A stretch of 64,000 nt of DNA from an uncultured Nitrososphaerota archaeon (GCA_963806765.1 CAWDYS010000002.1:566318-630317), one strand, 5' to 3'. Counted from the first letter of the stretch, positions 21,559 through 42,883 are shown. Notes: a model not told the origin generated them from the sequence alone. A program made the numbers and translations.

Positions 21559-21749
21559 GTCGCTTGCTCTGCTCCTCGAACGATGTCAAGGGACCTCACC
21601 TAAAAAGGAGACCTTCGTTGGATGAATCCGGGGGTCGGGACACCTATGGTGAAACCCGTGCGGCTCCAAGCCAAACCCTTCCTCTTCCAGTCTCGGCGAC
21701 CGGCGACGCACCAATCGATTGATATCTGCTGACTTCTTGGCCCGAAGCG

Positions 21750-23000: not shown

Positions 23001-23350
23001 CGGTCAAGAGCGCCTAATCTGCTGAGGTCAGCTCTTCCTCGACCAACCCATTGACCGCGATTGTCGCCTATCGCTTGGTCTGTGTCGTCCAGCGCCAAGA
23101 TCTCCTCGCCGAATGTCTCCTGGCTTCGCTCCCAAGCTACCAGGGCGCGTCGCACGACGACTCTTCGAAGTTTCAGGATGATCTTGAGAAGCTCTTCTTG
23201 TGCTTCTTCGTCGCTCTTCCCGGCCAATTGTCCAGCACCCTGTCCGCCCTTGAAGCTATGTATGCTTCCCATTTTTCGGGGTCGCGGCTGAGTTCCCCTA
23301 TCTTCCTGAGGACATCGTCCGATTCTCCCATTCGAGTCACAGCCCAACAC
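22997..23350 (-). CDS. Hypothetical protein
   Basis: 117-aa ORF with no recognisable motif. A shorter start at about 23272 is possible. Confidence 0.3.
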   Translation of the reverse strand: MLGCDSNGRIGRCPQEDRGTQPRPRKMGSIHSFKGGQGAGQLAGKSDEEAQEELLKIILKLRRVVVRRALVAWERSQETFGEEILALDDTDQAIGDNRGQWVGRGRADLSRLGALDR

Positions 23351-23450
23351 TCGGTCGCGGAATATATGCGGTGCGCGGGCTCAGATGAGACGACCTAGGA
23401 CAGCCCACTGGGCCGGCCTGCTACTCGTCCATCGAGCTCCGCCGCGAGTC

Positions 23451-23763: not shown

Positions 23764-23996
23764 GAGGAAGTTTCACAGCTGTTTCCATATAAGCGTGACT
23801 CGGAGCCGGATACCTTCCCGCGCACGGACTCCCACTCCTGCGAGCTCCACGCGCGGCGCAAGCCTCCGCTCTCCATTGACTGGGAACGAAGGGACTTCCG
23901 ACCTCGGGGGCGCTGCCTGCTCCTTGTCGACGACCTCGGCCGGGTTCGCCGGCTCCTGAGCTGACCCTTCCTCTCGAGACTCGACTCCTTGGTCCT

Positions 23997-24805
23997 CTAC
24001 GCCTTTCGCATGTAGGCCCGAAGGGTCAGCGGAGCGAATACGACCACGACCGCCGTCGACATTATGAGCGACAGCCAGAAGTCATTGCCGATGGTGCCCT
24101 GGTTGAAGAGCTGCCGGACTGCGCTCACGATGTAGGTCAGCGGGTTCACACTGACGAAGTCCTGCAGCAACCGGGGCAGGGTGCTGGTCGGCACGAAGGC
24201 GCCCGAGAGGAAGGTCAGAGGGAAGAGGATGGCCGTGGAGATCCCCTGGACCGTCTGCGCTGTCTTGAGGACGACGCCGAGCAGCGCGAATATCCAGCTG
24301 ATGCACCACGAGCAGAAGACGACCAGGACGCCGCCCAGGACAGCTCCCCCAGGCTAGCCCAGCGGAATCCCAGTACATAGCCCATGACGAAACAGAGACT
24401 CGTGGCGATTGTGTAGCGGACAACGTCGGCGAGCAGCGGGCCTGTTAGCGGGGCAATCCGGGCGATGGGCATCGACTTGAAACGATAGAACACCCCCTTG
24501 TCCATATCCTCGCGGAGCTGGACGCCCGTTGCTATGCAAGCCGTAAGAGCCGTCTGGGCTAGGATGCCAGGGATGATTATGGGCAGGTAGCCGCTCACGC
24601 TACCGGAGATAGCACCGCCGAAGAGATATACGAACATCAGCGTGAAAAGAATGGGCTGAATCGTAACGTCGAAGAGCTGCTGCGGCGTCCGGCGAATCAT
24701 GAGCAGGTTACGGTACGCCATCGTCAGCGAGTTGCTGATTGTCCTCCGCAGAGTCACGCTGTTCTTGAGCCTGCGCTGAGCGCCGGGGACTATCTGGGCG
24801 GTCAT
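23997..24805 (-). CDS. ABC-2 type exporter permease (DrrB-like), frame broken about 24200-24360
   Basis: MTAQIVPGAQRRLKNS...RNLLMIRRTPQQLFDVTIQPILFTLMFVYLFGG..., with the C-terminal part in ORF 23997..24194 (...VNPLTYIVSAVRQLF...). Confidence 0.8.
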
Positions 24806-25813
24806 GGCATGGCAGACTCCTTTCTCGGCCAGCTTGACATCGCCTGTCAGCGCTAGGAAGACTTCGTCGAGGGTCGGTTCCTCCATGCTCACGTTGGCGA
24901 GGTGAATCTTCGCCTGTCGCAGTGCAACGAGCAGGTCGGTTACCCGGTCGGGGTCTCCCATCGGTGCTGTGACGAGCGTGGGCTCGGGCGGGGAGGCTCT
25001 CACATTTAGCACCGTCTCGGTAATCCGAATAGCCTCGGCGGTGTCCTTGTCATCGGCGAGCTGTAGGTGCAGTGTCGCTTTTCCGACCGCGGCCTTCAGT
25101 TCACGGGAGGTACCCTCGGCCACCACGCGCCCGTGGTCAATCACGGCTATACGGTCAGCGAGGTGGTCGGCCTCATCAAGGTACTGCGTGGTCAGGAGGA
25201 TCGTCGACCCGGATGAGACGAGCCGTCGGATGGATTCCCACATCTGTATCCTCGTTCGCGGGTCGAGGCCGGATGTCGGCTCGTCCAGGAAGATGAGTGG
25301 TGCCTGAACGATGAGGCTGGAGGCGAGGTCGAGCCTACGCCGCATCCCGCCCGAGAACTTGTCGAGTGTCCTGTTGGCCGCGTCTGCGAGACCGAACTCC
25401 TGCAGAAGGTCCGCGGCCCTCTTTCTCGCTTCGGGCCTGCTGAGACCGAGCAGCAGCGCGAAGATCGTCAGGTTCTCGGATGCGGACAGCTTCTCATCGA
25501 CCGCGGCGCTCTGGCCTGTCACGCTGATGAGCTGACGAACGATCTGGGCCTCCCGCACGACGTCATGGCCGAACACCTTGGCGCTCCCGCCGTCCGGCTT
25601 GAGGAGCGTGTTCAGCATATTGATGATGGTCGTCTTGCCGGCACCGTTTGGCCCGAGCAGGGCATAGATGCAGCCGCTAGGTATCGACAGGTCCACTCCG
25701 TCGACGGCGCGGTTGTCCCCGAAGACCTTGACGAGCTTGTGGGCTTCGACCGCAAGGTTGTTCTGCTCGGCAATCGGAGTCCCGACCTGGATCTCTGACT
25801 GCTGCGCCATCAC
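24806..25813 (-). CDS. ABC exporter ATPase (DrrA-like)
   Basis: GPNGAGKTT, FSGGMRRRLDLA, LIFLDEPTSGLD. No stop separates it from the permease reading frame. Confidence 0.85.
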
Positions 25814-26304
25814 GGACCGCTCCCTGATTGCAACTCGTTCTTGAGGGCCTCCAGCCTCCTCGTCAGCTTCTCTATCCTGTCCCTGTGTTTCGGGAGGCCT
25901 GCCCTGCCGGTTCTCTGGAGGTCCTCGAGATACGAAGCGTTGCTCTCCATGGCGGAGAGGGCGCTCGCAACATCATCGCCGCTGGCTGACTGCTCCCCAT
26001 ATGAAGCGGTGAGCTCGAACTTCCCGTCCTTGTTCTTCGCTACCAGTCCCTCCTTCTCCAGCTGCTCGAGGAGGGGGTAGATCGAGCCGGGGCTCGGCCT
26101 GTACCAGCCGCGGCTCATCCCCTGCAGCTCGTTCATGATGTCCACCCCGTTCATCGGATGTCTTTCGAGGAGTTCGACTATCTGGGGCCGCAGGAAGCCG
26201 CGCTGTCCGAACTCGATTCGGCGGAAGTGCTCCATGCGGCGGAAGCCCGGATTCCCCCAAGGTCTGTGATGCCGTCTTTCTCCGTCCTGATCATCGTCGC
26301 TCAT
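25810..26304 (-). CDS. PadR-family transcriptional regulator
   Basis: MNGVDIMNELQGMSRGWYRPSPGSIYPLLEQLEKEGLV, plus a C-terminal coiled coil. First gene of the padR-ABC exporter operon. Confidence 0.85.
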   Translation of the reverse strand: MSDDDQDGERRHHRPWGNPGFRRMEHFRRIEFGQRGFLRPQIVELLERHPMNGVDIMNELQGMSRGWYRPSPGSIYPLLEQLEKEGLVAKNKDGKFELTASYGEQSASGDDVASALSAMESNASYLEDLQRTGRAGLPKHRDRIEKLTRRLEALKNELQSGSGP

Positions 26305-26328
26305 TGGTATGCCACTAACATCGTATAT

Positions 26329-26352
26329 GCGATATCGGCTACACGATATCGG
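26329..26352. promoter_or_regulatory. Putative PadR operator (two GATATC palindromes 14 nt apart)
   Basis: GCGATATCGGCTACACGATATCGG lies 25-48 nt upstream of the padR start at 26304. Confidence 0.4.
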
Positions 26353-26421
26353 GTATTAAAAGGTTGTGAAGATGGCCGCGAATGCGCCTGTATCCCACTG
26401 ACTGGCCTCGAACGGGGCGCC

Positions 26422-26439
26422 TTACTCCTTGTCGATGAA
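26422..26439 (-). repeat. R1: shortest, outermost copy of the aEF-2 3'-end repeat
   Basis: TTACTCCTTGTCGATGAA matches the genuine gene end at 35969-35986 (core ACTCCTTGTCGATGAA). Confidence 0.7.
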
Positions 26440-26513
26440 TTCCGCCGGGTTCCGCTCGTCCAGGGCTTCGAAGCAGAACGTTTTAGAGCTACGCCCACCT
26501 AGAATGCTTTGAC

Positions 26514-26918
26514 ATGTTGTCCAAGCCCGAAGCCGACTATCTCAAGACGCAGCGCCTTGCCAGGATTGCCACCGTTTCTCCTAAGGGTCAGCCCGAGGTC
26601 TCGCCGGTGGGCTTCGAGTGGGACGGGAAGTACTTCTACGTCGGGACTCATGATCCAGCCTTCTTCCCAAGCACGCAGAGGGTGAAGAACATCAGTCGTG
26701 GCAACAATCGCGTCTCCCTCGTTGTAGATGACCAAGTTTCGGTGAATCCATGGGTTGTGCGCGGGCTTAAGGTCCTCGGGGAGGCGGAGATTGTGGAGCA
26801 CAAGGGCATCTTCGGACCCGGGAAGTACCTCCGTATCTCCCCGCGGGTCTCCGTAAGCTGGGGAATCGAACCACAGAAGAAAGGCGAGTGGTCATCGTCC
26901 AGAAAGGTTCACGAATAG
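26514..26918 (+). CDS. PPOX-class (pyridoxamine 5'-phosphate oxidase family) probable F420-dependent oxidoreductase
   Basis: LARIATVSPKGQPEVSPVGFEWDGKYFYVGT...RVSLVVDD is the characteristic split-barrel pattern. Confidence 0.8.
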   Translation: MLSKPEADYLKTQRLARIATVSPKGQPEVSPVGFEWDGKYFYVGTHDPAFFPSTQRVKNISRGNNRVSLVVDDQVSVNPWVVRGLKVLGEAEIVEHKGIFGPGKYLRISPRVSVSWGIEPQKKGEWSSSRKVHE

Positions 26919-27037
26919 AGGGGCACATTCGACACCGTCCTTGAACATCGTCGCGTTACCTACTCTTGGCGTGGCTAATCGGGACTACAGGTCCTGTTCG
27001 CTGCCTTGGTTCCTCAAGTGGTCCTGGCCGGTTGAGC

Positions 27038-27075
27038 GAGCCACTGAGGGATTCGAACCCTCGGGTATCTGCCGA
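27038..27075 (-). other. tRNA 3'-half remnant (T-arm plus 3' acceptor strand), not a complete tRNA
   Basis: The minus strand reads ...UCGGCAGAUACCC GAGGG UUCGAAU CCCUC AGUGGCU C: a perfect 5-bp T-stem with the canonical TTCGAAT loop and a 7-nt acceptor strand. No matching 5' acceptor strand (AGCCACT) occurs upstream. Confidence 0.45.
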
Positions 27076-27105
27076 TACTCCTTGTCGATGAACTCTGACG
27101 GCGTC
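27076..27105 (-). repeat. R2: copy of the aEF-2 3'-end repeat
   Basis: TACTCCTTGTCGATGAACTCTGACGGCGTC is identical to 35969-35998. Abuts the tRNA remnant. Confidence 0.8.
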
Positions 27106-27118
27106 AGCAACTCCCGCG

Positions 27119-27367
27119 TCACTCGTACACAGAACCTCTGCTTGAGATCTTGAACACCAGAACGGTCTGGGCGTCGGCGATTGTGTAGAGAATCCGATAG
27201 CCGCCAACTCTGAGCCTGTATGAGTTTGGTATTCCTTTCAGCTTCTTGCAGCCCTGTGGATATGGGGATTCGGCGAGCTCAGATATCCTTGACTCGAGCC
27301 TGTCTCTCAAATCAGCTGGCGAGTAGTCCAGTGCTTTCCTGGCTCTGCTCGAAAGATAGACCTTCAA
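27119..27367 (-). CDS. relE: RelE/ParE-family type II toxin
   Basis: 82 aa; ...KKLKGIPNSYRLRVGGYRILYTIADAQTVLVFKISSRGSVYE matches the RelE/StbE signature. TTG start overlaps the antitoxin stop. Confidence 0.85.
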   Translation of the reverse strand: MKVYLSSRARKALDYSPADLRDRLESRISELAESPYPQGCKKLKGIPNSYRLRVGGYRILYTIADAQTVLVFKISSRGSVYE

Positions 27368-27534
27368 CCCTTGCGGGACCTGACGAATGGGACCAATCTT
27401 CCTTCCTTGTGCTCCCGAATCGCCTCGGTGAAGGCTCTCCTGTCCTCTTCCGAGGTCTCCTCAGAAAGCGCCTCCTCAATCGAATCCAGCCGTTTTCTGA
27501 TGAGCTTCAATTCCTTCTCGAGGCCCGTTTCCAT
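27364..27534 (-). CDS. Putative antitoxin of the relE module (56 aa)
   Basis: Hand-translated: METGLEKELKLIRKRLDSIEEALSEETSEEDRRAFTEAIREHKEGRLVPFVRSRKG*. Too short for the ORF track. Position and overlap are typical of a type II antitoxin. Confidence 0.6.
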   Translation of the reverse strand: METGLEKELKLIRKRLDSIEEALSEETSEEDRRAFTEAIREHKEGRLVPFVRSRKG

Positions 27535-27576
27535 CTTGTCCTCTCTTGACCCCTTGAAGTAATTAAACCCTGCTCG

Positions 27577-27590
27577 GCTTCGTACGAAGC
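27577..27590. promoter_or_regulatory. Perfect 14-nt palindrome upstream of the relBE-like operon
   Basis: GCTTCGTACGAAGC lies just beyond a TTTAATTAC TATA-like element (minus strand, about 27560-27568). Candidate autoregulation operator. Confidence 0.3.
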
Positions 27591-27660
27591 GGAGCCCTCA
27601 CGCCTGCTCGGGGCTACTCCTTGTCGATGAACTCTGACGGCGTGGGCGCCTCCGGAGATA
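27590..27660 (-). repeat. R3: longest copy (about 70 nt) of the aEF-2 3'-end repeat
   Basis: Aligns with 35944-36015 across the stop codon: about 25 nt of post-stop sequence plus about 45 nt of coding sequence (LSPEAP-PSEFIDKE*), with a 1-nt deletion and a few substitutions. Confidence 0.85.
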
Positions 27661-27823
27661 ATCACCCGCAACGACATCCTCAGCCTCTTCTGCATGTGCG
27701 ATGGGAACGACTTGGGCAATGGCCGGGCGAATCTAGCCATCGGTCTTCGTCACAGGGAGCACCTTTGCAGTGACAAATAACATAGGTCATTAACCCTTAT
27801 ATTGTGTCGAATGTGTCTAACGA

Positions 27824-29965
27824 ATGTTGCGTATCAGCTGGAAAGCTGGAACGAGGCGAGCCATCGGAAGGGGCGTCGTCGCAATTGTGATTATCGTCAT
27901 CTTGGTATTGGGCGGAACTGGCGCCTATCTTTTGACCGCGAGCCAAAAGTCGAGCAGCGGTACTAGCGGTAGCACCACTACCTCTTCGAACGGGGTGGTG
28001 CCAAAGTCAATCACGTACGAGACGGTGTCCACGATGCAGTACCTCGACCCTCAGGTCGCCTACGACATCTTCGGCGCATCGGTGGACCAGAACGTCTATG
28101 AGCCGCTCCTCTGGTTCAACGGGACCAACTCTCAGACACCGATTCCCTGGCTGGCGCAGACCTACACCGTCTCGTCCGACCAGAAGACAGTCACCATATC
28201 GCTGAAAAGCGGGATCCAGTTCGCCGACGGGGAAGTGCTCAACGCCTCCGACGTCTACTTCACCTACAACCGTCTCCTCATGATGGACGGAAGCGCGCCC
28301 GTGGGACACGGGACGCAGGCTTCCTGGATTCTCCAGCAGCTCCTGAATACGAGCCTGAGCAGCACCCTCTGCTGTAGCCAGACCTATGGACCGGGCTACG
28401 TCCAGAAGGTCTTGGCGGAGGACTTCGTGCAGGTCACCGGCACTCTGACGCTCGTGCTCCACATCATGGAGCCGAACAGCGCCCTCCCGTTCATGCTCGC
28501 CAACCAGTGGGCGTACATAGTCGCCCCAGACTTCACCATGCAGCACGACATCCAGCTGTGGAGCCAGTCGAGCACGGGCTACCAGCTGCCCTACCCGCAG
28601 CCGTCTGGGAACCTTACGCAGAAGATGACCCAGTACTTCGATGACTACCAAGCAACGTGCAACGCCGGGGCGACGTTGAAGGGTTGCGGCCTCACGTACC
28701 TCGATTCCTCGGTCCAGGGCTCGACGGCCGGCACCGGGCCGTACACGTTCGCGAGCGTGGACCAGGCAAACAACATCATAACGCTCCAGGCGAATCCCAA
28801 CTACTGGGGCGGACCCGGCGGGAACATCCACCCGCAAATCCAGCAGGTCGTTTACAAGTACGTGCCAGACCAGACCACGCGAGAGATCAACCTCCAAGAC
28901 GCCGCAGCGTCTGGACAGGCCATGGTGATCGATGTTGCACCCACCAACATCTACGACGTTGCGAACAGGTCGCTTTGGCTGAACAACAACCAGTCTCGTC
29001 TCCACTCAGAAGGGCGTGACCATCTACGGACCGTACAGCCAGTATGCGACGCTCTTCATCCCCCTCGACACGAACGTTACCAACCCCTTCACCGGTACGT
29101 TCTACACGTTCCAGCCCTTCGCAGACCTCAGGCTCAGGACGGCGCTCGCCGACTCTGTCAACCTGACGCAGATTAACCTGCAGCTCAACAACAAGCTCGG
29201 AAGCGTAGCCAATGAGGTCGTGCCTCCGGGGATACCTCCGAACGGGGCATACAGACTCAGCGATACAGCCCGCCTACAGCTGACAACCCTGACCAGGTCC
29301 AAAAGCTGCTGCTCGACGCGATGATGCACCCGCTCACCCACTTCACCTACGAGAACGGGACCGCTGCGCGTGCGGGCGTGTTCGACAACACGTTCGGTTG
29401 CGCGCAGCTCGCCGCGAACAACCAGTGCTCGCATCCGACCGCGCAGACCATCACCCTCACCTACGCGACGGGTGATACCGTGGATGAAGCGATACTCAAC
29501 CAGATGGCTGAGACGATGAACAACGTCAGCACCACTTACAACATGGGTCTGACCGTCCAGCTCGTCCCGCTGCCCCTGGGCCAGATGACCAGTGAGGCGT
29601 TCGCCGGGCAGGTCTACGCTTGGGCTGAGGCGCCCTTCGGTTGGTACGACGACTACCCGTGGTCGATGGACTTCCTCGGACCGATACTGTCGCCGGGCGG
29701 GATATACACAGCTCCCGGAGGGTGGAACCTGCCGCAGATGGGGACGTACTGGAGCGAAGCGCAGCAGGCGAACACCGTGGGGAACGTAGCAGGCGTGGTC
29801 ACCGCGACGAACGCGATGGCGGCGCTCGGCAACAAGGAGGTAATGGACATCTGGACGTTCTACCCGGCCATCTATATGGTGATGACTTCGAACGTTCACG
29901 GATTCTACTTCAATCCGGCAATCTACACGACCGGGGAGCCGCAGTACTTCGCATCTCTGTCATAG
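27824..29965 (+). CDS. ABC peptide/nickel (Opp/Dpp) family-5 substrate-binding protein, two frameshifts (about 29000, about 29300)
   Basis: N-terminal anchor helix and S/T linker, then the SBP_bac_5 pattern (YLDPQVAYD...YEPLLWFN...LKSGIQFADGEVLNASDV). Continues through ORFs 29016.. and 29321..29965. Confidence 0.85.
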
Positions 29966-30200
29966 GGGTTCGCCAGGGGAAGGGAATCGACGAACTGATT
30001 CTCTTCCCGTCAGTGGCGCGACGAACGCGTAACAACGGGACTGGGTCCGAATCGGGGGGCAGCGAGTGGCCTGACGCTTCCCGGCTTCCGACCAACGAAG
30101 ACAGCTCATTAGGGCCCGCCCATGCCGCGCCGCCCTCGCCACGGTTCATCCCTCCCGAGCCCGAGCACCACTTCCCAATCTTCCGCCGGAAGTGGGCTGA

Positions 30201-31319
30201 TTGAGACTCTACGAGTACGCCATCAGGCGCCTCCTGCTCATGGCCTTCGTCCTCCTCGCGCTGAGCCTCCTGATCTTCTACCTGACTCGCGGTCTGTTGC
30301 CCCCCGCGACTTCCCTTGCGCCTTACATCTCCCCAAGAATGGACGACCAGGCCAAGCTCTCCCTCGCCCAGGCCCTGGGCGTCGCGACCAGCTCCCGTCC
30401 TTCCTTCTCGGCTTTCGCAGCCCAGCAGCACGGATGCATCGTGCCTCTCTGGGGCCAGTACCTCGGGTGGCTGAAGAACGTGCTGACGGGGAACTGGGGG
30501 TTTACGCTCCTCCCAGGAATCTCGGGCACCGACACGACTTGGAACGTCTTCTTCCGCAGGTTCCCCTACACTGCGGAGCTCGCCATCGCGGGCGGCCTTC
30601 TCGCAATCCTGATTGGTGTCCCGTTGGGGATCGTCTCAGCGACGCACAACAACAAGCTCCCTGACCACATCTCGAGAATAGTCTCGCTGGGCGGGTACTC
30701 CGTCCCCCAGTTCTGGTTCGGAGCGATGCTCCAGATACTCTTCGTGCTCTACATCAGGGTGAACGGGATGGGGCTGCTCTCAGCGAGCGGCGCCCTCGCC
30801 ACAAGTTGCGCAATCTGCGTGAGCAACCCCGGGGTGATCACCTCGCACTCGGGGATTCCGATCATCGACGCGATTCTCTCCCTGAACTTCCCGTACCTCT
30901 GGGACTCGCTGGTTGCCCTGGCCCTGCCCGCCCTAACCCTTGCCATCACGTCCATCGGCGCCCTCACCAGAATCGTCAGGTCCAGCATGATGGATGTCTT
31001 AAGACAGGACTACATTCTGCTGGCGAGGTCGAAGGGTCTCAAGGAGAACGTGGTCGTCTACAGGCACGCGCTGAGGAACGCGATGCTCCCAGCCGTGACC
31101 GTCTCAGGGTTGCTCGTGGCATACCTCCTCGGGGGGGCGGTCATCGTCGAGATCGTCTTCTCCTGGCCGGGAGTAGGCAACGCATCCCTCGTCGCGGCCG
31201 ACGTTCTCGACATCAACTTCCTGGAGCTCTACGTCCTGGTCACCGCGGTAATCATCGTGGTCACGAATCTGGCCGTCGATCTCATCTACGCTAAGCTGGA
31301 CCCGAGGATTAGATACTGA
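30201..31319 (+). CDS. Opp/Dpp ABC transporter permease (OppB/DppB-like)
   Basis: 372 aa, N-terminal YAIRRLLLMAFVLL, BPD-transporter EAA-type loop (LARSKGLKENVVVYRHALRNA). Confidence 0.9.
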   Translation: MRLYEYAIRRLLLMAFVLLALSLLIFYLTRGLLPPATSLAPYISPRMDDQAKLSLAQALGVATSSRPSFSAFAAQQHGCIVPLWGQYLGWLKNVLTGNWGFTLLPGISGTDTTWNVFFRRFPYTAELAIAGGLLAILIGVPLGIVSATHNNKLPDHISRIVSLGGYSVPQFWFGAMLQILFVLYIRVNGMGLLSASGALATSCAICVSNPGVITSHSGIPIIDAILSLNFPYLWDSLVALALPALTLAITSIGALTRIVRSSMMDVLRQDYILLARSKGLKENVVVYRHALRNAMLPAVTVSGLLVAYLLGGAVIVEIVFSWPGVGNASLVAADVLDINFLELYVLVTAVIIVVTNLAVDLIYAKLDPRIRY

Positions 31320-31329
31320 GGAGAAGAGC

Positions 31330-32259
31330 ATGGAGAGCACCAAGAAACCCTCTGAGAGCGGCCGGCGCGGGCGACAGGACCTGCGCTACGCCCTCCACCT
31401 GTTGAGGAGGAACCCGATCGTCCTCGCGGGGGTCGTCCTCTCAACCGGGGCCATGATCATTGCGCTCCTTTCTCCACTGCTGGTGAACCCGACCGCCTGG
31501 CAACAGCAGCCTCTCAACTTGCGCCTCTGCTGGAACAACCCGCTCTTCAGCTGGGGGAGCGCGAACATCTTCAAGTGTTCGGGCGCGGTGTACCCCCTAG
31601 GCACCGACGCGTACGGAAGGAGCCTGCTCCAGATGATAATCTTGGCCATCCCGATCGACCTGAAGATCGCCTTCGAGGTCGTCGCCTCCGCTGTCCTGAT
31701 CGGCGTGTTCTTCGGAGGAGTCGCCGCGTACGTCGGAGGGATAGCCGACGAGGCCATACTCAGGATAACCGACATCTTCCTAGCAATTCCGGGGATCCTC
31801 CTCGCGATCGTCCTGATCGTCGTCATGGGACGGTCGCTGACGACCCTGACCATCGCCGTGCTGGTAACCTGGTGGCCGTACTACGTGAGGCTCGTCCGTT
31901 CCCAGGTCTTGGGCGAGAAGCAGAAGCCCTACGTCGAGAGGCTGCGCTCGATGGGTGCTGGCGGGCCCAGGATTCTCTTCCGGCACGTTATCCCGAACTC
32001 CGTCTACCCGGTCTTCGTTCAGGCGACGCTCGACATAGGCTCGGTGATACTCACGGTCTCCGCCCTGACATTCATCGGCTTGACGCCCAATCCCCTGCTC
32101 CCAGAGCTCGGGAACCTGGCCAACCAAGGCATCGGCTACTTCTTCACGGCGCCCTGGCTGATAGCCTTCCCCGGCCTCACGATACTCGCAGTCTCCATCG
32201 GTTTTAACCTGCTCGGGGACGGGATAAGGGACATTCTCGACCCGCGCCTCAGGAGATGA
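31330..32259 (+). CDS. Opp/Dpp ABC transporter permease (OppC/DppC-like)
   Basis: 309 aa; PLGTDAYGRSLL motif and an EAA-type loop (YVERLRSMGAGGPRILFRHVIPN). Confidence 0.9.
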   Translation: MESTKKPSESGRRGRQDLRYALHLLRRNPIVLAGVVLSTGAMIIALLSPLLVNPTAWQQQPLNLRLCWNNPLFSWGSANIFKCSGAVYPLGTDAYGRSLLQMIILAIPIDLKIAFEVVASAVLIGVFFGGVAAYVGGIADEAILRITDIFLAIPGILLAIVLIVVMGRSLTTLTIAVLVTWWPYYVRLVRSQVLGEKQKPYVERLRSMGAGGPRILFRHVIPNSVYPVFVQATLDIGSVILTVSALTFIGLTPNPLLPELGNLANQGIGYFFTAPWLIAFPGLTILAVSIGFNLLGDGIRDILDPRLRR

Positions 32260-32264
32260 CATAG

Positions 32265-33394
32265 ATGGCGAAACAAGGGGCCACCGAGACGCCGAACATC
32301 CTCGAGATCAAGGACCTGAAGGTCTCCTTCCACACCTACGCGGGCGACGTCAAGGCGCTCGACGGCATCGAGCATGTCGGTGAGGAAGGGCGAGCTCCTC
32401 GGCCTGGTGGGAGAGAGCGGCTGCGGCAAGTCCGTGACCACGCTCGCGGTGGCCGGGCTGCTGCCGCCGAACGCCGAGATACTCAGCGGGGAGGTTCTGC
32501 TCGACGGGACAAACCTCCTTTCGATTGGCAAGGACGAGATGCGCCGGGTCAGGCTCAAGGACATAGCGATCGTCTTCCAGGACCCAATGACCTATCTGAA
32601 CCCCGTGCTGACGGTCGGGTCCCAGATCTCGGAGATAATGGCCACCGACCCCGCAACGTTCATCCCCACGCTCGTCAGGCACAGGCTCGACGAGATCGGC
32701 AGGACCGAGGCAGGGGAGCCAGACCCCAAGCTGCAGGCAGAAAGTGCGCGGCTCTCCTCGGCCCTCCAGACTCTCCAGCTCAGCAAGAAGGAGTTCAAAT
32801 CGCTCAGCCGTCTCTACATCCTCGCGACGCTTCGCTCGGTGAGGCTCCCGAACCCTGAGAAGGTGATGAAGATGTTCCCCTTCGAGCCTCTCGGGCGGAA
32901 TGAGGCAGAGGATCATGATAGCCATGGCTCTCGTAAGGAGACCCAAGCTCCTGCTCGCCGACGAGATGACGACTGCCCTCGACGTCACCGTGCAGGCCCA
33001 GATACTTCAGATTCTGAGAGAGCTCAAGAGGGAGATAGACGCGTCCGTGCTCCTGATCACCCACGACCTGGCAATCGTCGCAGAGGTCTGCGACAGGGTA
33101 GCTGTCATGTACGCTGGGAACGTGGTCGAGGTCGCCGACGTCCGGGAGCTCTTCAGGAACCCGCTTCACCCCTACACGCGAGGTCTGCTCGCCTCGGTCC
33201 CCCGCGTCGACGCTACCTCGATCATGGACGAGGCGTCGATCAAGGGCTCGGTGCCCGACCTCATCTCCCCGCCCAGCGGATGCCGGTTCCATCCGAGGTG
33301 CCCCCGAGCCTTCGACAGGTGCCCCCGAGAGAAGCCGGCGCTCGTCGAGGTGAGCCCGGGACACGTGGTCTCGTGTTTCCTCTATGGAGCGTGA
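32265..33394 (+). CDS. Opp/Dpp ABC transporter ATPase (OppD-like), two frameshifts (about 32370, about 32890)
   Basis: GESGCGKSV, SGGMRQRIMIA (after the shift), LLLADEMTTALD, C-terminal oligopeptide-ATPase Cys motif (GCRFHPRCP). Confidence 0.85.
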
Positions 33395-34442
33395 AGAATC
33401 GATGGGAGACCCCGACTATCTGCTCGAGACGAAAGACCTGTTCAAGCTCTTCCCAATGAGGGAGGGCCTCCTGGGCAGGAAGGTCGCCTACGTGAGGGCT
33501 GTCGACGGGGTCACCATTGGGGTGAGGAGGGGAGAGACCCTTGGACTGGTCGGCGAGTCGGGATGCGGCAAGACCACCCTGGGGAGAACGATCCTGAGGC
33601 TCACGGAGGCGTCGGGCGGTACGATCAGGTTCGACGGAGTGGAGATTTCAGCCCTCAAGGGACGCCAGCTCAAGCCGTTCAGGGGGAGGATGCAGATAGT
33701 GTTCCAGGACCCCTACGCCTCCCTGGACCCCCGTCAGAACGTCAGGTCAGCGATAGTGGAACCTATGAGGATACACAACGTGGTGTCTTCGAGGAGGGAA
33801 GCCAACCGCCGCGCCGAGGAGCTGATAGAGACGGTCGGCCTCAACCCGGACCACCTCGCGAGGTACCCTCACGAATTCTCCGGAGGCCAGAGGCAGAGGA
33901 TATCAATCGCCATCGCGCTCGCCGTCAAGCCTTCCTTCATAGTCCTGGACGAGCCGACATCATCGCTCGACGTCTCCGTCCAGGCCCAGATACTCAAACT
34001 GCTGAAGACCCTGCAGCTGGAGCTGGGTCTTACGTATCTGTTCATCTCCCACAACCTGGCTGTGATCAGACAGATCTGCGACAGGACCGCCGTCATGTAC
34101 CTAGGTAGGATAGTCGAACTCGGCGCAACCGTCAGGTTGTTCGAGAACCCGAAGCACCCGTACACGAAGGCGCTGCTCTCCTCAGTCCCCGTCCCAGACC
34201 CTTTGAAGAGGAAGGAGCTGGCCGTGCTTTCCGGTGACATCTCAGTCCCGATGGGATTGCCGACCGGCTGCAGGTTCAGGGCGAGGTGCGCCTACGCGAC
34301 TGATGTGTGCGCCGCGGCCGACCCTCCCCTGCTGGAGGTCGAGAAGGACCACTGGATAGAATGCCACTACGACATCGATTTCGACACCGCTTCTCAGAGG
34401 AGGCTGGAGCCCCCAGCTAGCGGGAAGCCGCCACGGCGATGA
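33384..34442 (+). CDS. Opp/Dpp ABC transporter ATPase (OppF-like)
   Basis: GESGCGKTT, FSGGQRQRISIA, FIVLDEPTSSLD, GCRFRARC. Confidence 0.9.
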   Translation: MEREESMGDPDYLLETKDLFKLFPMREGLLGRKVAYVRAVDGVTIGVRRGETLGLVGESGCGKTTLGRTILRLTEASGGTIRFDGVEISALKGRQLKPFRGRMQIVFQDPYASLDPRQNVRSAIVEPMRIHNVVSSRREANRRAEELIETVGLNPDHLARYPHEFSGGQRQRISIAIALAVKPSFIVLDEPTSSLDVSVQAQILKLLKTLQLELGLTYLFISHNLAVIRQICDRTAVMYLGRIVELGATVRLFENPKHPYTKALLSSVPVPDPLKRKELAVLSGDISVPMGLPTGCRFRARCAYATDVCAAADPPLLEVEKDHWIECHYDIDFDTASQRRLEPPASGKPPRR

Positions 34443-34617
34443 TCAGGATGACCACCATCAGGACGATCAGGGGCACTGCGATCGTCTCCACCGCTGCGAT
34501 GGAGAGCGCGAGGTAGTCCCTCCAGCGAAGCCTGATCGGTTCCTCCTTGTCGCCCGAGCCTTCGTGTTCCGCTTGCTTCTCCTCGCTTCCCAATCCCTTC
34601 CCCGCTATCCCTGACAA
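34417..34617 (-). CDS. Possible small single-helix membrane protein
   Basis: 66-aa ORF with one strongly hydrophobic C-terminal helix. It could equally be a chance ORF. Confidence 0.2.
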   Translation of the reverse strand: MSGIAGKGLGSEEKQAEHEGSGDKEEPIRLRWRDYLALSIAAVETIAVPLIVLMVVILIIAVAASR

Positions 34618-34711
34618 TCGGGGGCGTGAGAATCATAAAAGGGTGCCGTTGACGCGAGAGGAGACTCTGGCCCGGAGAGCGACCGCTGTTTCGCCCGACC
34701 TCGTGCATCCA

Positions 34712-34745
34712 GCTACTCCCTGTCGATGAACTCTGCAGGTGTCGG
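34712..34745 (-). repeat. R4: diverged copy of the aEF-2 3'-end repeat
   Basis: GCTACTCCCTGTCGATGAACTCTGCAGGTGTCGG against GCTACTCCTTGTCGATGAACTCTGACGGCGTCGG at 35967-36000 (a few mismatches). Confidence 0.75.
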
Positions 34746-34792
34746 CTTCGAAGAACACTCAGGACTTCCGATTCCGAGTTCGACCCTAGGGT

Positions 34793-35017
34793 TCAAACGT
34801 GTTTCAGGAACTCGTTTCGTTCAATCCTGGCATCGTTCAGTATGGCCTGCAGGGTTCCCGTGTCCAGCTCCGGGTGCAAGGGCACCGTGATGAACGACGC
34901 GTCGTTGGTAAGGGTGACGTGGCTGCCTTTCTGTCTCAGTACCCTGAACCCATAGTACTTTGCCAAGGTCTTGACCAGCATTTTCCCGGAGATAGCTGGC
35001 AGCCTAGGCAAGTACAA
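34793..35017 (-). CDS. hicA: HicA-family (YcfA-like) type II toxin
   Basis: SGKMLVKTLAKYYGFRVLRQKGSHVTL...ITVPLHPELDTGTLQAIL. Confidence 0.8.
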   Translation of the reverse strand: MYLPRLPAISGKMLVKTLAKYYGFRVLRQKGSHVTLTNDASFITVPLHPELDTGTLQAILNDARIERNEFLKHV

Positions 35018-35023
35018 CTACTT

Positions 35024-35251
35024 CTACGCAGGTACCAGCTGACCCTCTTCTATGGCAACCTTTCCGTGTTCAATCGCGTACTCTGCCATCGCTTCGAGAT
35101 GAACTTGAATGGCTTCCCTCAGATTCTTTCTTGCCTCCTCTCTTGTCTTGCCCTGCGTCGTTATGCCGAGTTCAGGAACACGCGCCACATAGAGTTTTTC
35201 TCCCTTGGATATCTTCACGCTGAACTTCATCGACATGACTGAACCAATCAC
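35024..35251 (-). CDS. hicB: HicB-family (UPF0150) antitoxin
   Basis: KFSVKISKGEKLYVARVPELGITTQGKTREEARKNLREAIQVHLEAM. Confidence 0.75.
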   Translation of the reverse strand: MIGSVMSMKFSVKISKGEKLYVARVPELGITTQGKTREEARKNLREAIQVHLEAMAEYAIEHGKVAIEEGQLVPA

Positions 35252-35332
35252 TCCGTAATTCTATTTAAAGAACTCCGTCCGGATTAGCCGAAGCCCAGGA
35301 GGGCCGGAGACGATTCTCCGGACTGTATTCCG

Positions 35333-35353
35333 TCACTCCTTGTCGATGAACTC
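35333..35353 (-). repeat. R5: short copy of the aEF-2 3'-end repeat
   Basis: TCACTCCTTGTCGATGAACTC (core identical; the stop becomes TGA). Confidence 0.7.
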
Positions 35354-35436
35354 GAGAGACCGTGCGACACACACCTGGAATACTCGGTCAACCCGAGCAT
35401 GGTTGCCTTTATCTACCGACTGAACCTCTTTCTTGC

Positions 35437-35659
35437 ATGATGAAAGCGAAGACGCGCCCCTTCACGGTGGCAATCGAGCGTGGAGAGGACGGCTACTATG
35501 TAGCGAGTGTCGTGGAACTCCCGGGGTGCCACACCCAGGCGAAGACTCTGCGGGAATTGGACAGGCGCGTGAAGGAGGCCATCGAGACTCAATCTCGAGG
35601 CAAGGGGCGACGACTTTTCCATCCCTGAGCTTGTGGCCGTGAAGAAGGTCAATGTTTGA
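35437..35659 (+). CDS. hicB: HicB-family antitoxin, 1-nt insertion near 35590
   Basis: MMKAKTRPFTVAIERGEDGYYVASVVELPGCHTQAKTLRELDRRVKEAIE, then after removing one A: LNLEARGDDFSIPELVAVKKVNV*. Its stop overlaps the hicA start. Confidence 0.8.
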
Positions 35660-35901
35660 ACAGACCTCGCAAGCAACTTCATCCTGCGAAGCCGAGAGGT
35701 CTGCTGAAGGCACTTTCCAATCTGGGTTTCGCCGCAAGGCAGGCAAAGGGCTCGCACGTCTTCTTGAAGCATCCGGACGGTCGCACGACAACGGTCCCCG
35801 TGCATCCAGGCGAAGATATCGATAGGGTGCTTCTGCGGAAGATAGCCGCCGATGTCGGTCTAGAGCCAGAAGAGCTGATGTATCTGGTTGACGAGGCCTA
35901 A
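35656..35901 (+). CDS. hicA: HicA-family type II toxin
   Basis: LLKALSNLGFAARQAKGSHVFLKHPDGRTTTVPVHPGEDIDRVLLRKI. Confidence 0.85.
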   Translation: MNRPRKQLHPAKPRGLLKALSNLGFAARQAKGSHVFLKHPDGRTTTVPVHPGEDIDRVLLRKIAADVGLEPEELMYLVDEA

Positions 35902-35943
35902 TGCACCGCAGCCAGAACGCATGCCCAAATTGGAATCGAGGGG

Positions 35944-36015
35944 AGGAGCCCGACGCCTGCTCAGGGGCTACTCCTTGTCGATGAACTCTGACGGCGTCGG
36001 GGGCTCCGGCGAGAG
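35944..36015 (-). repeat. R6: master copy of the repeat (genuine aEF-2 3' end plus about 25 nt downstream)
   Basis: Encodes ...LSPEPPTPSEFIDKE* with stop at 35968-35970. Reference for R1-R5. Confidence 0.85.
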
Positions 36016-38197
36016 GCCCTTCCTCTTCCTCGTCTCGAGTACCAACGGCAGGAGCATGTTCGTCGGGACCGACTGCCAGAGCTTGAAGTTGGTGTTCCAC
36101 GTGGCCTTGCCCGCCGTCGCGCCCCTCATGACCTGCGAGAGGTCGAAGGTCTCGGCGGCCGGAATCTCGCCCTGTATGATGGTCACGACCTCCCTCTGCT
36201 CGACGTTGATGAGCTTGCCGCGTTTAGCGCTGATGACGCCCGTGATGGCCCCTATGAGGTCCCCGGGCCCCTTCACCTCTATGCCCAGTATCGGCTCCAG
36301 GAGCGTCGGGTTCGCCGTCAGCATCGCCCCGAGTATAGCCCTCCTCGTCGCCGGCATCAGCTGCGCGTAGGTCCTGTGCGCCGGGTCCTCGTGCGGGACA
36401 TAGTGCGTCAGCGTCACCTTGATTCCCCTGCAGAATCTCGTAGGCAAGGGGTCCGTTCTGCATGATGTCCTCGAAGCCCGCCCGGATGGAGTCCATCGAC
36501 TCCTGCAGGTATTGGACGCCCTTGGTCTCCTCCGTGAGCATGTTGCCCTTGGGGTCGATGGTGACCACGGACTTCGCCTCGTCCGACGACCACCCGTTGT
36601 CCCTCAGCGTCTTCTGGATGCCCTTCTTGTCCGTCATCTCGTTGAGCGTCCCGTTCCTGATGAGCTCGACGATGTGCGGGTCGAGCGGCTCGACCTTGAT
36701 GAATATCTTGTTGTGCCTGTTCGGGGAGCGCGACATGATTGGCCCCGCCGCCTGCCTGACCGTCTCCCTGTAGTTGATGATAGGCGGCGAGGTGATTATC
36801 TCCAGCCCCTGCTGCTGGAGCATCGTCGTCGCTATCTCGAGGTGGAGCACGCCCATGCCGGCCATTAGCGTCTCGCCCGACTCCTGGTTGATTGTGATTA
36901 TGAGGTTCGGGTCCTCGATGTTGAGCTTGCGCATCGCCTCGACGAGCTTCGGGAGGTCCCTCGGGTGCTTCGCCTCGACCGCCGTCGTCACGACCGGCTC
37001 GGAGACGTAGTGTATCGACTCGAACGGTACGACGTCCTTGAGGTTCGATATGGTTTCGCCCGAGCGGATGTCGAGCCCCAGCAGCGCCGGGATGTTGCCC
37101 GCCGGGAGCGAGTCCACAATCTCTCTCTGGAAGCCCATGAAGAGCTGGACCGACTGTATCTTGCCCTCCTTCTTCGAGTTGAGCAGGTAGACAGGGTCGC
37201 CGTTGGAGACCGAGCCCGAGAAGAGCCTGCCGACGCCGACCAGCCCCGCCGCCGGGTCCACCACGACGTTGGTGACCATCATGACCATCGGGCCGTTCTC
37301 GTCGCACGCCAGCAGCGACTTGCCCACCTCGCTGTTGAGGTCGCCCTGCCAAATCTTGGGGATGCGGTAGGCCTGCGCTACGTCGGGCCGTGGGTGGTGC
37401 TTGACGACCATGCCGAGGAGCGCCTCGTGGAGCGGGAGCCTCTTGCCAAGGCCCTCCGGCCCCACGGTAGTGTACGCCTCGATGATGTCCTTGAACGACA
37501 TGCCCTCCCGCTTCGCCATGGCCGCGTTGAAGCCCCACTTGTCCTTGCTGGAGCCGAAGGCCACCTGCCCCGCCGCGACCGTCACCTTCCACTTCTCCTT
37601 GTACTCGGGCTCGGCGTAGGTGTCGATGAGGCGGTTGAAGTCGTTGACGATGTCGAAGAGCCACTTCAGCATCGCGTCGGGCCCCAGACGGAGCTCTTTG
37701 ATCAGGCGGTCGACCTTGTTGATGTATAAGACCGGACGGACCCTCTCCTCGAGCGCCTGGCGCGTGACTGTTTCTGTTTGCGTCATCACGCCTTCAACAC
37801 TGTCTACAACGACGATAGCCCCGTCAACGGCCCTTAACGACCTCGTAACCTTGCCTGTGAAGTCGATGTGGCCGGGCGTGTCGATGAGGTTGATGACATA
37901 CGGCTGTCCCTCCTCTTCGTAGTAGAGCGTGACATTGGCCGCCTTGATGGTCATCTGCCTCGACTGCTCCAGCTCCATGTAGTCCAGGGCTAACGCTTGA
38001 CCAGCTACGCTAGGACTCAACATTCCACACGCTGCCAGGAGGGAGTCGGATGTCGTCGTTCTCGGTAGTAGAATCAGACCAAGCTACTGGTTGCTACTAT
38101 TCCCGTGGTCGACATGCGCGATGATCCCGAGGTTGCGTATGTGTGCCCTATCGTGGACGATTTTGAGGGCTTCTGTCGTAGACTTGAACTTCGGCAT
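35968..38197 (-). CDS. fusA: Archaeal translation elongation factor 2 (aEF-2), interrupted by a 39-nt insertion (38061-38099) and one frameshift near 36430
   Basis: MPKFKSTTEALKIVHDRAHIRNLGIIAHVDHG[39 nt]KTTTSDSLLAACGM...LIDTPGHIDF...; C-terminus ...GKATWNTNFKLWQSVP...PSEFIDKE*. All GTPase motifs are present once the insertion is removed. Confidence 0.95.
38061..38099 (-). other. Candidate bulge-helix-bulge (BHB)-type intron within the aEF-2 P-loop codons
   Basis: 39 nt with in-frame TAG codons. Precise removal restores AHVDHGKTT. Flanks fold into helix / 3-nt bulge / 4-position helix / 3-nt bulge, with both junctions after bulge nucleotide 2 (see finding). Confidence 0.4.
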
Positions 38198-38676: not shown

Positions 38677-39570
38677 TTGAGCGGATTAAAGGTCCCTCCA
38701 GACCGCGGGTCGGTCTTGCTTCAACTCGAGATTTCGAAGGTGTTCGTCAGCGGGGTTAACGTGCGACGGAGCCCCGGAGATGTGGGAGATCTCATGCAGT
38801 CGATCAGCGAGAAGGGCATACTCGAGCCCCTCCTGGTGAGGCCGGTCGAGGACCGCTACGAGCTGATCGTGGGCTCCCGGAGGTTCGAGGCGGCGAAGCG
38901 GCTGGGCTTGAAGGAGGTACCGGCCATCGTCAGGGCGATGGGGGACGAGGACGCCCTCATCGTCTCGCTGGTCGAGAATGTCCAGCGAAAGGACGTGGAG
39001 CCCGAGGAGGAGTACGACGCCCTGATGAAGCTCAAGAAGCTGAATCCGGCGCTCTACTCCACGGTGGACCAGCTGGCCAGGGCTATAGGCAAGTCGCGTT
39101 CGTACGTCGAGGACCGCGTCGCCGCGGTCGAGACGGTCAGGACGATCCGGAGGGGGTCGAAGAAGTCGACCATCGCCGTCATGCAGTCTCCGACGAGGGA
39201 GGAGAGGAAGGAGGGCGTCCTGCCGATCAAGCATGCCGCGTTCCTTCACAGGGCCGAGGAGGCGCCGCTGGTCCAGAAGCTCCCGGAGGAGAAGCGCGCG
39301 AGGAAACTGTCCGCGCTGGCCGAGACGATCGCCGAGCTCCCCAGACGCGAGGCCCAGGAGGTCGTGGAGCGCTTCGTCAGGGCCCCGCAGAGGCCCATCG
39401 AGGAGATTAAGAGGGAGACCGAGGCGCTTCACGCGTCCAAGATCGAGCTCGTGCTGGACCCCAGAGTCGCCGACGGTCTCAGGAGGGCCGCCGAGGAGAG
39501 GAAGACGACCATGGAAGCGATAGCAGCTCTCGCAATTCACTCTTGGCTAAGGCAGAACAAGTACGACTAG
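38677..39570 (+). CDS. ParB/Srx N-terminal-domain protein (ParB-like nuclease/partition family)
   Basis: ISKVFVSGVNVRRSPGDVGDLMQSISEKGILEPLLVRP...YELIVGSRRFEAAKRLGLKEVPAIV...VENVQRKDV is the ParB box pattern. Confidence 0.8.
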   Translation: MSGLKVPPDRGSVLLQLEISKVFVSGVNVRRSPGDVGDLMQSISEKGILEPLLVRPVEDRYELIVGSRRFEAAKRLGLKEVPAIVRAMGDEDALIVSLVENVQRKDVEPEEEYDALMKLKKLNPALYSTVDQLARAIGKSRSYVEDRVAAVETVRTIRRGSKKSTIAVMQSPTREERKEGVLPIKHAAFLHRAEEAPLVQKLPEEKRARKLSALAETIAELPRREAQEVVERFVRAPQRPIEEIKRETEALHASKIELVLDPRVADGLRRAAEERKTTMEAIAALAIHSWLRQNKYD

Positions 39571-39824
39571 CTGGTCTCCCTCGAGTTTGAGATAGCCGTA
39601 CTGGCTGAGGAGGTCGTCGCAGATGTTGCCAGAGCCCACGTTCTCGTTGAAGCGGCCGCAATGGTACGACCGGCCCCTGATGCTGAAAGCCTTGCGGCTC
39701 TCGTATGAGTGTCCGTTGGTGTACGGAATTGTTCCGAGGTTCAGCGGCTCCATGCTCGAATACCACAAGTGGGCAGTTAAGCACCAGCACTCGGAGGCCG
39801 CTGGGACTTGAGCCAGCCGTCGAC

Positions 39825-42800: not shown

Positions 42801-42838
42801 TCCTCCGCCGTCGCGGCGCCCAGCGTCTGCATGCCCAA
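39825..42838 (-). CDS. Large membrane-anchored surface protein with clostripain-like (peptidase C11) domain, at least two frameshifts (about 41032, about 40345)
   Basis: N-terminal anchor helix, about 450-aa beta-rich region, C11 core (ILTDHGSG His, FSFDACLMSQVEV Cys, YQLR-ADASYFTASE across the 41032 shift), S/T-rich stalk and C-terminal helix plus basic tail (APIAVALVTLVAAALAQRRRG). Confidence 0.8.
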
Positions 42839-42883
42839 GCTAATGGCAGCTTGAAGTTCCAGCCTCCATCGCGGCCCAAGGTC

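Follow-up and report, generated by a model that had tools for sequence, protein, structure and literature searches.

Direct copies of the aEF-2 gene end delimit arrays of small gene cassettes in Nitrososphaerales

We analysed 64,000 nt of DNA from an uncultured Nitrososphaerota archaeon (GCA_963806765.1 CAWDYS010000002.1:566318-630317; G+C ~61%), the whole of which is called the window here. Downstream of its aEF-2 gene, the window carries an array of gene cassettes separated by direct copies of the last codons and stop of aEF-2 itself. The same repeat architecture recurs across a clade of Nitrososphaerales, in which cassettes are shared in varied order, the copies diverge in the manner of coding sequence, and neither a local recombinase nor terminal inverted repeats (TIRs) were found in the stretches searched. 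With moderate confidence, we propose that such arrays may arise when cassettes that bear a terminus copy but no recombinase insert one after another by single crossover (Campbell-type), through host homologous recombination or an enzyme acting in trans.

Seven terminus copies in the window

A sequence-only reading of the window had described six copies of the aEF-2 end in one orientation, numbered R1 to R6, of which R6 is the true gene end. Direct reading and a repeat search showed that all six are real and agreed with the coordinates given for them to within 1-3 nt. Read in reverse complement, the 16-mer ACTCCTTGTCGATGAA gives the codons F-I-D-K-E and the first stop base; it occurs with at most one mismatch at six sites on the plus strand (26424, 27077, 27616, 34715, 35335 and 35970), against a chance expectation of 0.04 matches per window in dinucleotide shuffles. 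An nhmmer profile built from the last 63 nt of aEF-2 from ten related loci recovered R1-R6 and added a seventh copy in the same orientation, the more decayed R0, which corrects the earlier count. With the profile, neither strand of the window gave a further significant copy, and any candidates beyond R0 stayed within the noise. At a minimum, the array extends over 23918-36030, with six cassettes (Table 1). Because R0 lies beyond the ABC exporter, the PadR regulator and exporter form the sixth of these rather than a native flank. The empty site that had been predicted, with aEF-2 followed directly by padR-ABC, was wrong, as padR-ABC sits inside the array.

Comparison with other aEF-2 alleles showed that the lengths first given for R1, R2 and R4 were too short. 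R3 is the longest copy in the window, as had been claimed, but the 1-nt deletion assigned to its coding part, which has three substitutions and no indel, lies instead in the 27 nt after the stop. These 27 nt, which follow the aEF-2 stop at 35941-35967 (CCCCTGAGCAGGCGTCGGGCTCC...), recur after R3 at 27590-27616. Part of the CCCCTGAGCAGGCGTCGGGCTCC... stretch also occurs in a related locus (L020), where it lies at the left-hand edge of the RelE cassette, just past the aEF-2 stop of that locus. The post-stop stretch of R6 pairs with coding CCGACGCC to form a hairpin around the last codons, and R3 has a compensatory change. A shared hairpin around the core was considered and dropped, since it was present at R6 and R3 and folding of 60 copies gave no common structure.

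Table 1 Terminus copies, cassettes and the aEF-2 gene in the window
Feature	Position (nt)	Strand	Content	Evidence
Candidate older part of array	21723-23377		Two-ORF cassette (~23031-23377) and NDH-2 (21723-22997)	Order swapped relative to L048
R0	23918-23974	-	Terminus copy, more decayed, 57 nt, encodes EPANPAEVVDKEQ	nhmmer E=8e-8 to 1.5e-7
Cassette Z	23975-26422	-	PadR regulator (25810-26304), ABC/ABC-2 exporter (24215-25813, frameshifted)	Pfam; bounded by R1 and R0
R1	26423-26456	-	Terminus copy, ...NPAEFIDKE*, stop TAA	nhmmer E=1.3e-8
Cassette A	26457-27037	+	PNPOx-family flavoprotein (26514-26918)	Pfam PNPOx_N
tRNA 3' fragment	27038-27075	-	Variable region, T-arm and acceptor 3' strand; abuts R2	GGTTCGAATCC match; weak tRNA-clan match
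R2	27076-27111	-	Terminus copy, 30 nt identical to resident end, stop mutated to TAT	nhmmer E=8e-10
Cassette B	27112-27589	-	Antitoxin (27364-27534), RelE/ParE toxin (27119-27367), promoter box TTTAATTA	Pfam ParE_toxin
R3	27590-27660	-	Longest terminus copy in window: 47-nt coding end (PEAPTPSEFIDKE*) and ~27 nt post-stop match	nhmmer E=8e-11
Cassette C	27661-34712	+	Five-gene Opp/Dpp-type ABC importer; binding protein and one ATPase frameshifted	Pfam SBP_bac_5, BPD_transp_1 x2, ABC_tran x2, oligo_HPY
R4	34713-34747	-	Terminus copy, ...TPAEFIDRE*	nhmmer E=3.5e-9
Cassette D	34748-35333	-	hicB (35024-35251), hicA (34793-35017), promoter-like box TTTAAATA	Pfam
R5	35334-35354	-	Terminus copy, GAGTTCATCGACAAGGAGTGA, stop TGA	nhmmer E=5e-6
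Cassette E	35355-35940	+	hicB-like (35437-35628), hicA (35656-35901)	Pfam HicB_lk_antitox/UPF0150, HicA_toxin
R6	35968-36030	-	True aEF-2 terminus (last 63 nt)	Stop at 35968-35970
aEF-2 gene	35968-38197	-	Translation ending ...PEPPTPSEFIDKE*	nhmmer E=1e-18

Equivalent arrays in related genomes

The aEF-2 of the window is 94-99% identical to that of Nitrososphaerales metagenome-assembled genomes (MAGs), and its C-terminus is 76-99% identical to those of uncultured Nitrososphaerales/Thaumarchaeota MAGs from peat, soil and groundwater and of 33 metagenome contigs. The profile search revealed more than one terminus copy in eleven further non-redundant Nitrososphaerales loci, which makes twelve arrays with the window. 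Six copies each were found in L007, L008, L015 and L020, three in L024, and two each in L006, L010, L011, L019, L031 and L048. All 34 displaced copies in the twelve arrays lie downstream of aEF-2 on the strand of the gene, and no copy was found upstream of aEF-2 or elsewhere in 489 kb of related loci. The 34 units that they delimit are 440-7099 nt long (median 854 nt). Below ~80% identity in the aEF-2 C-terminus, loci carry one end only, with the exception of L031 (78%, two copies).

The accretion hotspot that had been proposed for the window holds across the clade, as the relatives' arrays differ in their cassettes and in their order. The enrichment in toxin-antitoxin modules was likewise borne out, with VapBC, RelE and HicAB cassettes in relatives. 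Two patterns had been named as contrary to the proposal, namely relatives with the same gene order and no repeats, and a core motif scattered in unrelated places; neither was seen. A scan of IMG/VR for free elements that carry the 19-nt core gave five matches, all within unrelated coding regions. In two relatives a cassette gene runs into a terminus copy: a YVTN-repeat protein of L008 (9317-10690) ends ...PAEIVGKE*, borrowing the codons and stop of the copy, and a VapC of L007 (10803-11294) overlaps a 109-nt copy in another frame.

Displaced copies resemble former working gene ends

We measured the edges of each copy relative to the stop codon of its own host. On the right, similarity ended at the stop (-2 to +2) in all copies except R3 of the window, where it continued to ~+27. 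Left edges were spread over -17 to -106 and clustered at -17 to -23, and the copies are 17-109 nt long. A group of about nine, of 17-24 nt, begins at the F codon or close to it; others measure 30-109 nt. An in-register stop was kept in 28 of the 34 displaced copies, with TAG, TAA and TGA all in use.

Over the last seven codons, differences from the resident end fell 17, 23 and 51 times at codon positions 1, 2 and 3, respectively (chi-square against uniform ~22). Five long copies (L007 11305, L007 12819, L008 7323, L015 14683 and L024 4632) together have 24 synonymous and 5 non-synonymous codon differences from the resident end; seven synonymous and no non-synonymous changes, including an AGC-to-TCA serine switch, were found in the L024 copy. 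The allele of the host itself was the best match for 15 of 31 copies, and others were closer to the functional end of another genome. The same L024 copy matches the L025 end at 26/26 positions and that of its own host at 20/26, R4 is closest to the L017 allele, and R1 is nearer to the L014 allele than to the resident one.

Because the differences are almost only synonymous in several copies and because some match foreign alleles, we infer that the displaced copies are former working aEF-2 ends, some of them from diverged lineages. A plain short target-site duplication does not explain such copies. These alleles suggest that insertion would bring or expose a new aEF-2 end and displace the old one. 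The in-register stops, and differences that in many copies fall mainly at third positions, fit the earlier claim that the aEF-2 3' end was inserted into repeatedly and rebuilt each time.

Cassettes recur as discrete units in varied order

The RelE cassette stands fourth in the window. The last cassette of L007 matches it at 81% identity and the first of L020 at 73%. All three arrays agree on the inner boundaries of this cassette, which runs from the promoter box GCAGGGTTTAATTAC to the distal copy. The distal copy itself follows the allele of the host (TPSE in the window, NPAE in L007) and starts at -30 and -37, respectively. The window and L007 share this cassette and the tRNA fragment that follows it, yet the copies are host-specific, which points to independent insertion or to gene conversion from the resident end.

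Other cassettes are shared in the same manner. Homologues of HicAB cassette D occupy other positions in the L008, L015 and L020 arrays, and a homologue of cassette E is present in L024. Three cassettes that run in the order A-B-C in L008 run C-B-A in L015 with their orientation unchanged. A two-ORF (open reading frame) cassette and NDH-2 stand in one order in the window and in the reverse order in L048; in L007, L008 and L020, terminus copies lie on both sides of the two-ORF cassette. Any terminus copies around these two units in the window (21723-23377) are too decayed to score above noise; the window array probably continues, in decayed form, to ~21700. Shared cassettes are 70-88% identical between genomes.

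The RelE cassette is flanked by other gene ends elsewhere

RelE-toxin homologues were used to reach contigs with the same antitoxin-RelE unit at other sites. In L050, the cassette is bracketed by duplicated DUF488-gene 3' ends (61-70 nt, 77% identity, with an alternative stop), and in L053 by ~290 nt of the 5' end of a hydantoinase gene (~78% identity). In L052, 39-nt copies of a tRNA 3' end delimit four units: RelE; PNP-NUDIX-AP endonuclease-MazE/PIN; Fic; and PIN/MazE. In L054, tRNA-like 15-mers flank the cassette. The repeats at these sites vary in sequence and length, and in each pair one member resembles a diverged allele of the gene alongside. Because the RelE cassette is bracketed elsewhere by the duplicated ends of other genes, the mechanism of insertion is probably not specific to aEF-2. 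A homology-dependent mechanism would fit these sites better than one that recognizes a single core sequence. No recombinase was present in the Pfam lists for the non-aEF-2 RelE contigs.

The L052 array (1-4600), whose four tRNA-end copies delimit cassettes rich in toxin-antitoxin modules, is an array of a second type; it belongs to a Nitrososphaerales-like MAG (GCA_030038395.1), and an integrase was not found in the 6.5 kb available. Fragments like the tRNA fragment of the window follow aEF-2 ends in L007, L014 and L025 and flank the RelE cassettes of L052 and L054.

Search for an enzyme and for element hallmarks

The enzyme search covered 64 kb of this genome and 20-kb pieces of relatives. 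Pfam scans of the ~50 ORFs of the window gave no integrase, transposase, Cas1 or PolB, in keeping with the sequence-only reading, which had seen no recombinase in the 64 kb. In 16 loci, 108 ORFs of >=110 aa within 10 kb downstream of aEF-2 matched 78 Pfam families, and no recombinase was among the best 25 listed. PHROGs gave 13 matching families for the relatives' downstream ORFs, with no integrase, transposase or PolB. Ten of the largest cassette proteins in relatives are ordinary cargo (NHL repeats, RIO-like kinase, hydrolases and GNAT), again with no Cas1 or PolB.

No TIRs were detected: the best end-to-end inverted score over 34 cassettes was 19, which equals the 95th percentile of cross-cassette controls. 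No IntI or other tyrosine recombinase was found anywhere in the window or, among the families listed, in the relatives' flanks. We found no attC-like palindromes, as folding of 60 copies gave no shared hairpin and inspection of the core gave no GTTRRRY box. The cassettes face both ways and have TATA-like promoters of their own, so the suggestion of an integron-like platform was not upheld. A casposase query taken from the machine-read supplement of PMC4046053, the text of which is unreliable, had no match in IMG/VR.

Overall, direct repeats of the 3' end of the target gene stand in one orientation at every boundary of units with no recombinase of their own, as in tandem accretion. The flanking duplications vary in length and identity from event to event, and one copy looks like a diverged (donor) allele, as in Campbell-type integration.

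A model of single-crossover insertion and its alternatives

In the proposed Campbell-type model, the incoming DNA, in the simplest case a circle looped out of another array, would consist of a cassette plus the last 17-109 nt of aEF-2. A crossover would then occur within the shared stretch, with the resident aEF-2 end or with any resident copy. This would recreate an intact aEF-2 end and stop and leave the previous end as a displaced direct repeat beyond the cassette. Repeated insertion, together with loop-out between copies, would build and shuffle the array, each freed cassette carrying one copy. The first repeat may have been seeded by a casposon duplication. The model would explain the variable left edge, kept stops, foreign alleles with only synonymous differences, and shuffled order. 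A fixed right edge would be expected because conservation between genomes ends at the stop codon, and a variable left edge because the homology segments, borne by the element or the donor, differ in length. We lean towards host homologous recombination as the catalyst, because the RelE cassette lies elsewhere within diverged duplications of 61-290 nt and because copies track host alleles; an integrase in trans and then a casposase in trans would be the next candidates.

Several points weigh against this model. At 17-24 nt, nine of the copies are short substrates for RadA-type homologous recombination, and the minimal core coincides exactly with the codons duplicated by casposons, which hints at a sequence-specific enzyme. 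No near-identical cassettes occur in divergent genomes, so the activity could be ancient. Both the circular intermediate and the catalyst are what we infer, and the circle and its excision junction are postulates rather than observations. The Pfam search for a recombinase in relatives covered the best 25 of 78 families, so a lone one could have gone unseen, and the search in this genome covered 64 kb.

A tyrosine or serine integrase supplied in trans by full-size elements elsewhere is a possible but rather doubtful agent; the cassettes would then be like cis-mobilizable elements (CIMEs), with an attachment (att) site that mimics the aEF-2 end. Direct repeats of a gene 3' end with variable blocks of identity are the classical att signature, and integrated elements of thaumarchaea use tRNA genes and protein-gene 3' ends with att sites of 8-26+ bp. 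In addition, tRNA 3'-end fragments abut several copies, the tRNA-end array of L052 has the same RelE cassette, and the stop variants TAG, TAA and TGA sit at the copy edge as if the element supplied a new end. However, no integrase was found in the window or, among the families listed, in or near any of the 12 arrays, and the core, by inspection of the aligned copies, lacks the dyad symmetry of tyrosine-recombinase core sites. The left edges of one and the same cassette differ between genomes and track the host allele, and the diverged 61-290-nt duplications at other loci are not att-like.

An improbable alternative is a casposase (Cas1-solo) in trans, for which the copies would be target-site duplications beside aEF-2 as a 'leader', and the whole a gene array with the form of a CRISPR array. 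Thaumarchaeal family-1 casposons most often target the 3'-distal region of ef-2, and two stand in tandem there in Ca. Nitrosopumilus adriaticus (PMC4046053, PMC6563490), so that an attachment site at a protein-gene terminus has a precedent. The Nitrosopumilus direct repeat (TTTATTGATAAAGG...) spans the same F-I-D-K codons as the core described here, and the roughly nine copies of 17-24 nt from or near the F codon are close to the 19-21-nt duplication. Casposon sites can coincide with those of tyrosine-integrase elements (PMC4779613). Many copies, at 30-109 nt, are longer than this duplication, although casposases occasionally produce much longer ones in vitro (PMC5137440). What tells against a casposase is the absence of TIRs above control scores and, among the families listed, of Cas1 or PolB genes or remnants in the 12 arrays, the foreign alleles with synonymous-only differences in displaced copies, and the same RelE cassette at non-aEF-2 sites where other genes are duplicated.

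Slightly less probable again is a graveyard in which nothing moves now and the intervals are eroded remnants of complete proviruses, casposons or plasmids. Casposons and Tn7 are known to pile up in tandem as dead elements at a single site, the distal copies (R0 and beyond) are decayed, and the 70-88% identity of shared cassettes would suit such an origin. But the intervals are 34 tidy promoter-plus-gene units of 854 nt median length with no hallmark gene of a mobile element among the families listed, the same cassettes with the same boundaries appear at different ranks, and copies common to the window and L007 match the allele of their own host, which would need ongoing conversion or re-insertion. 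An assembly artefact or chance repeats are effectively refuted, despite clear indel errors in the window, because unique cassettes lie between the copies, six to seven copies were observed for 0.04 expected, and equivalent arrays exist in independent JGI short-read, NCBI and long-read assemblies, which also disposes of the worry that the copies were duplicated in assembly.

Cassette contents and the aEF-2 neighbourhood

The contents that the sequence-only reading had assigned to the modules were recovered with Pfam: PNPOx, ParE/RelE with a small upstream ORF, the Opp importer and two HicAB pairs. Cassette genes lie on both strands, and TATA-like boxes (TTTAATTA, TTTAAATA and TTTTAATA) stand ~25-35 nt ahead of start codons. 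The tRNA remnant reported beside cassette A is real and comprises a T-arm and an acceptor 3' strand. Together with R2 (27038-27113, minus strand) it gave a weak full-length match to the tRNA clan (tRNA-Sec, 21.8 bits, E 0.036), and an acceptor-like stem is formed by GAGTTGCTG upstream and CAGTGGCTC downstream. The fragment resembles the 3' part of an intron-containing tRNA that lies ~1.7 kb upstream of aEF-2 in the distant relatives L026, L030, L035 and L036 and that ARAGORN missed. No intact tRNA gene adjoining aEF-2 was found.

The aEF-2 frame is broken by an extra T at 36435 and by a 39-nt insert at ~38061-38099; frameshifts also affect the Opp binding protein (27824-29965), OppD (32265-33459) and the ABC exporter (24215-25813). 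The window frameshifts are most likely homopolymer or indel errors of long-read assembly rather than marks of pseudogenes, and L014, another long-read MAG, has the same indel problem. Windows of 50-150 nt along aEF-2 were too noisy to show a pattern of mosaic divergence, which would be a sign of end replacement.

The 39-nt insert (minus strand) is placed exactly at the P-loop lysine codon (HVDHG|K|TTTSD) and contains an in-frame TAG and a hairpin. Inserts of ~23-33 nt occur at the same position in the independent assemblies L010, L015, L021 and L022, where all end in CCGAG or CCGAA; most other relatives are without one. All five inserts share a common fold, with an outer helix between exon 1 and exon 2, a central helix of 3-4 bp, an inner hairpin, and bulges where the two predicted splice sites lie. 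This fold resembles a bulge-helix-bulge intron and suggests a putative pre-mRNA intron. The classic archaeal example of a pre-mRNA intron is cbf5; a literature search found no report of an intron in aEF-2.

Upstream of aEF-2 lie a ParB_N-domain protein (38677-39570, plus strand) and a frameshifted clostripain-like (C11) peptidase (39550-43003, minus strand). The ParB_N protein was rejected as a candidate partner, as neither it nor its neighbours stand near aEF-2 in any relative. Because the upstream neighbours are conserved beside aEF-2 in no relative, both flanks of the gene are variable. Further away, two stop-free frames of 1231 and 2071 aa (49084-52779 and 54910-61125, plus strand) have no Pfam match and lie where GC skew is strongly negative; they either encode giant unknown proteins or arise from reading the wrong strand of high-GC sequence. 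Exact-protein look-ups for window proteins returned no record.

Relation to known systems and biological meaning

By the features that define an integron or a casposon, the aEF-2 array is neither. Family-1 casposons (NitAR1-C1, NitSJ-C1 and the tandem NitNF5-C1/C2) come from the same phylum, target the same F-I-D-K codons of the ef-2 3' end, leave the gene intact, are flanked by direct repeats and can insert in tandem. They measure 7.6-8.2 kb, encode Cas1 and a protein-primed PolB, and have 68-71-bp TIRs and a duplication of ~21 bp, whereas the units described here are shorter (median 0.85 kb), showed neither Cas1 or PolB nor TIRs, and are bounded by 17-109-nt repeats, which can be foreign alleles.

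The workings of the array resemble a process known in bacteria, in which non-autonomous elements accrete in tandem at a conserved gene's 3' end. The fda 3' end of Streptococcus thermophilus undergoes tandem accretion of integrative and conjugative elements (ICEs) and CIMEs, and the staphylococcal orfX/rlmH 3' end holds composite arrays of staphylococcal cassette chromosome (SCC) and pseudo-SCC elements. In both systems, as here, direct repeats of the 3' end of a conserved protein gene split the array and the end is regenerated, and many members are without a recombinase and are served in trans. Those systems are bacterial, with members of kilobases to tens of kilobases and a known cognate Int or Ccr; the units here are archaeal and integron-sized, and no enzyme was identified.

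Prophages e14 and phage 21 insert in icd of Escherichia coli, where the element likewise supplies a substitute 3' end and the displaced pseudo-copy differs mostly synonymously; each is a single large prophage with its own integrase, in contrast to an array of small cassettes. Chromosomal integrons, which have been reported in Archaea (PMC9668308), share with the aEF-2 array a polar series of small, mostly single-function cassettes that is enriched in toxin-antitoxin modules and varies in order among relatives. They differ from it in having IntI and attC, where the array has plain direct copies of a gene end and cassettes that face both directions under their own promoters. What is new is the integron-like scale and tidiness, the failure to find a cognate enzyme across a dozen genomes, and the evidence for repeated replacement of the last codons of an essential gene. 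In the literature searched, small cassettes that lack a recombinase are nowhere described as forming arrays at the aEF-2 end.

We tentatively suggest that soil and peat Nitrososphaerales may run a cassette exchange without a dedicated integrase, with ultra-conserved gene termini (the aEF-2 3' end and, in other genomes, tRNA 3' ends) as universal homology anchors. If so, cassettes would loop out and re-insert in other lineages, each insertion giving an essential gene the terminal codons of a foreign allele, and the system would be, in function, an integron without an integrase. If a casposase in trans were responsible instead, it would build a CRISPR-like array whose 'spacers' are whole genes. 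Casposon insertion beside a leader-like sequence is the proposed ancestor of CRISPR spacer insertion, and a repeat array at the exact casposon target makes this idea directly testable. At one site, the array joins two literatures, those on casposon targeting of ef-2 and on cassette arrays of the integron and CIME type. If active now or recently, it would give soil Thaumarchaeota that resemble non-ammonia oxidizers a route of gene gain, in which cassettes the size of those in integrons accumulate at the terminus of an essential, highly conserved gene without a local integrase, and the aEF-2 terminus would serve as a landmark for flexible gene pools in archaeal metagenome bins.

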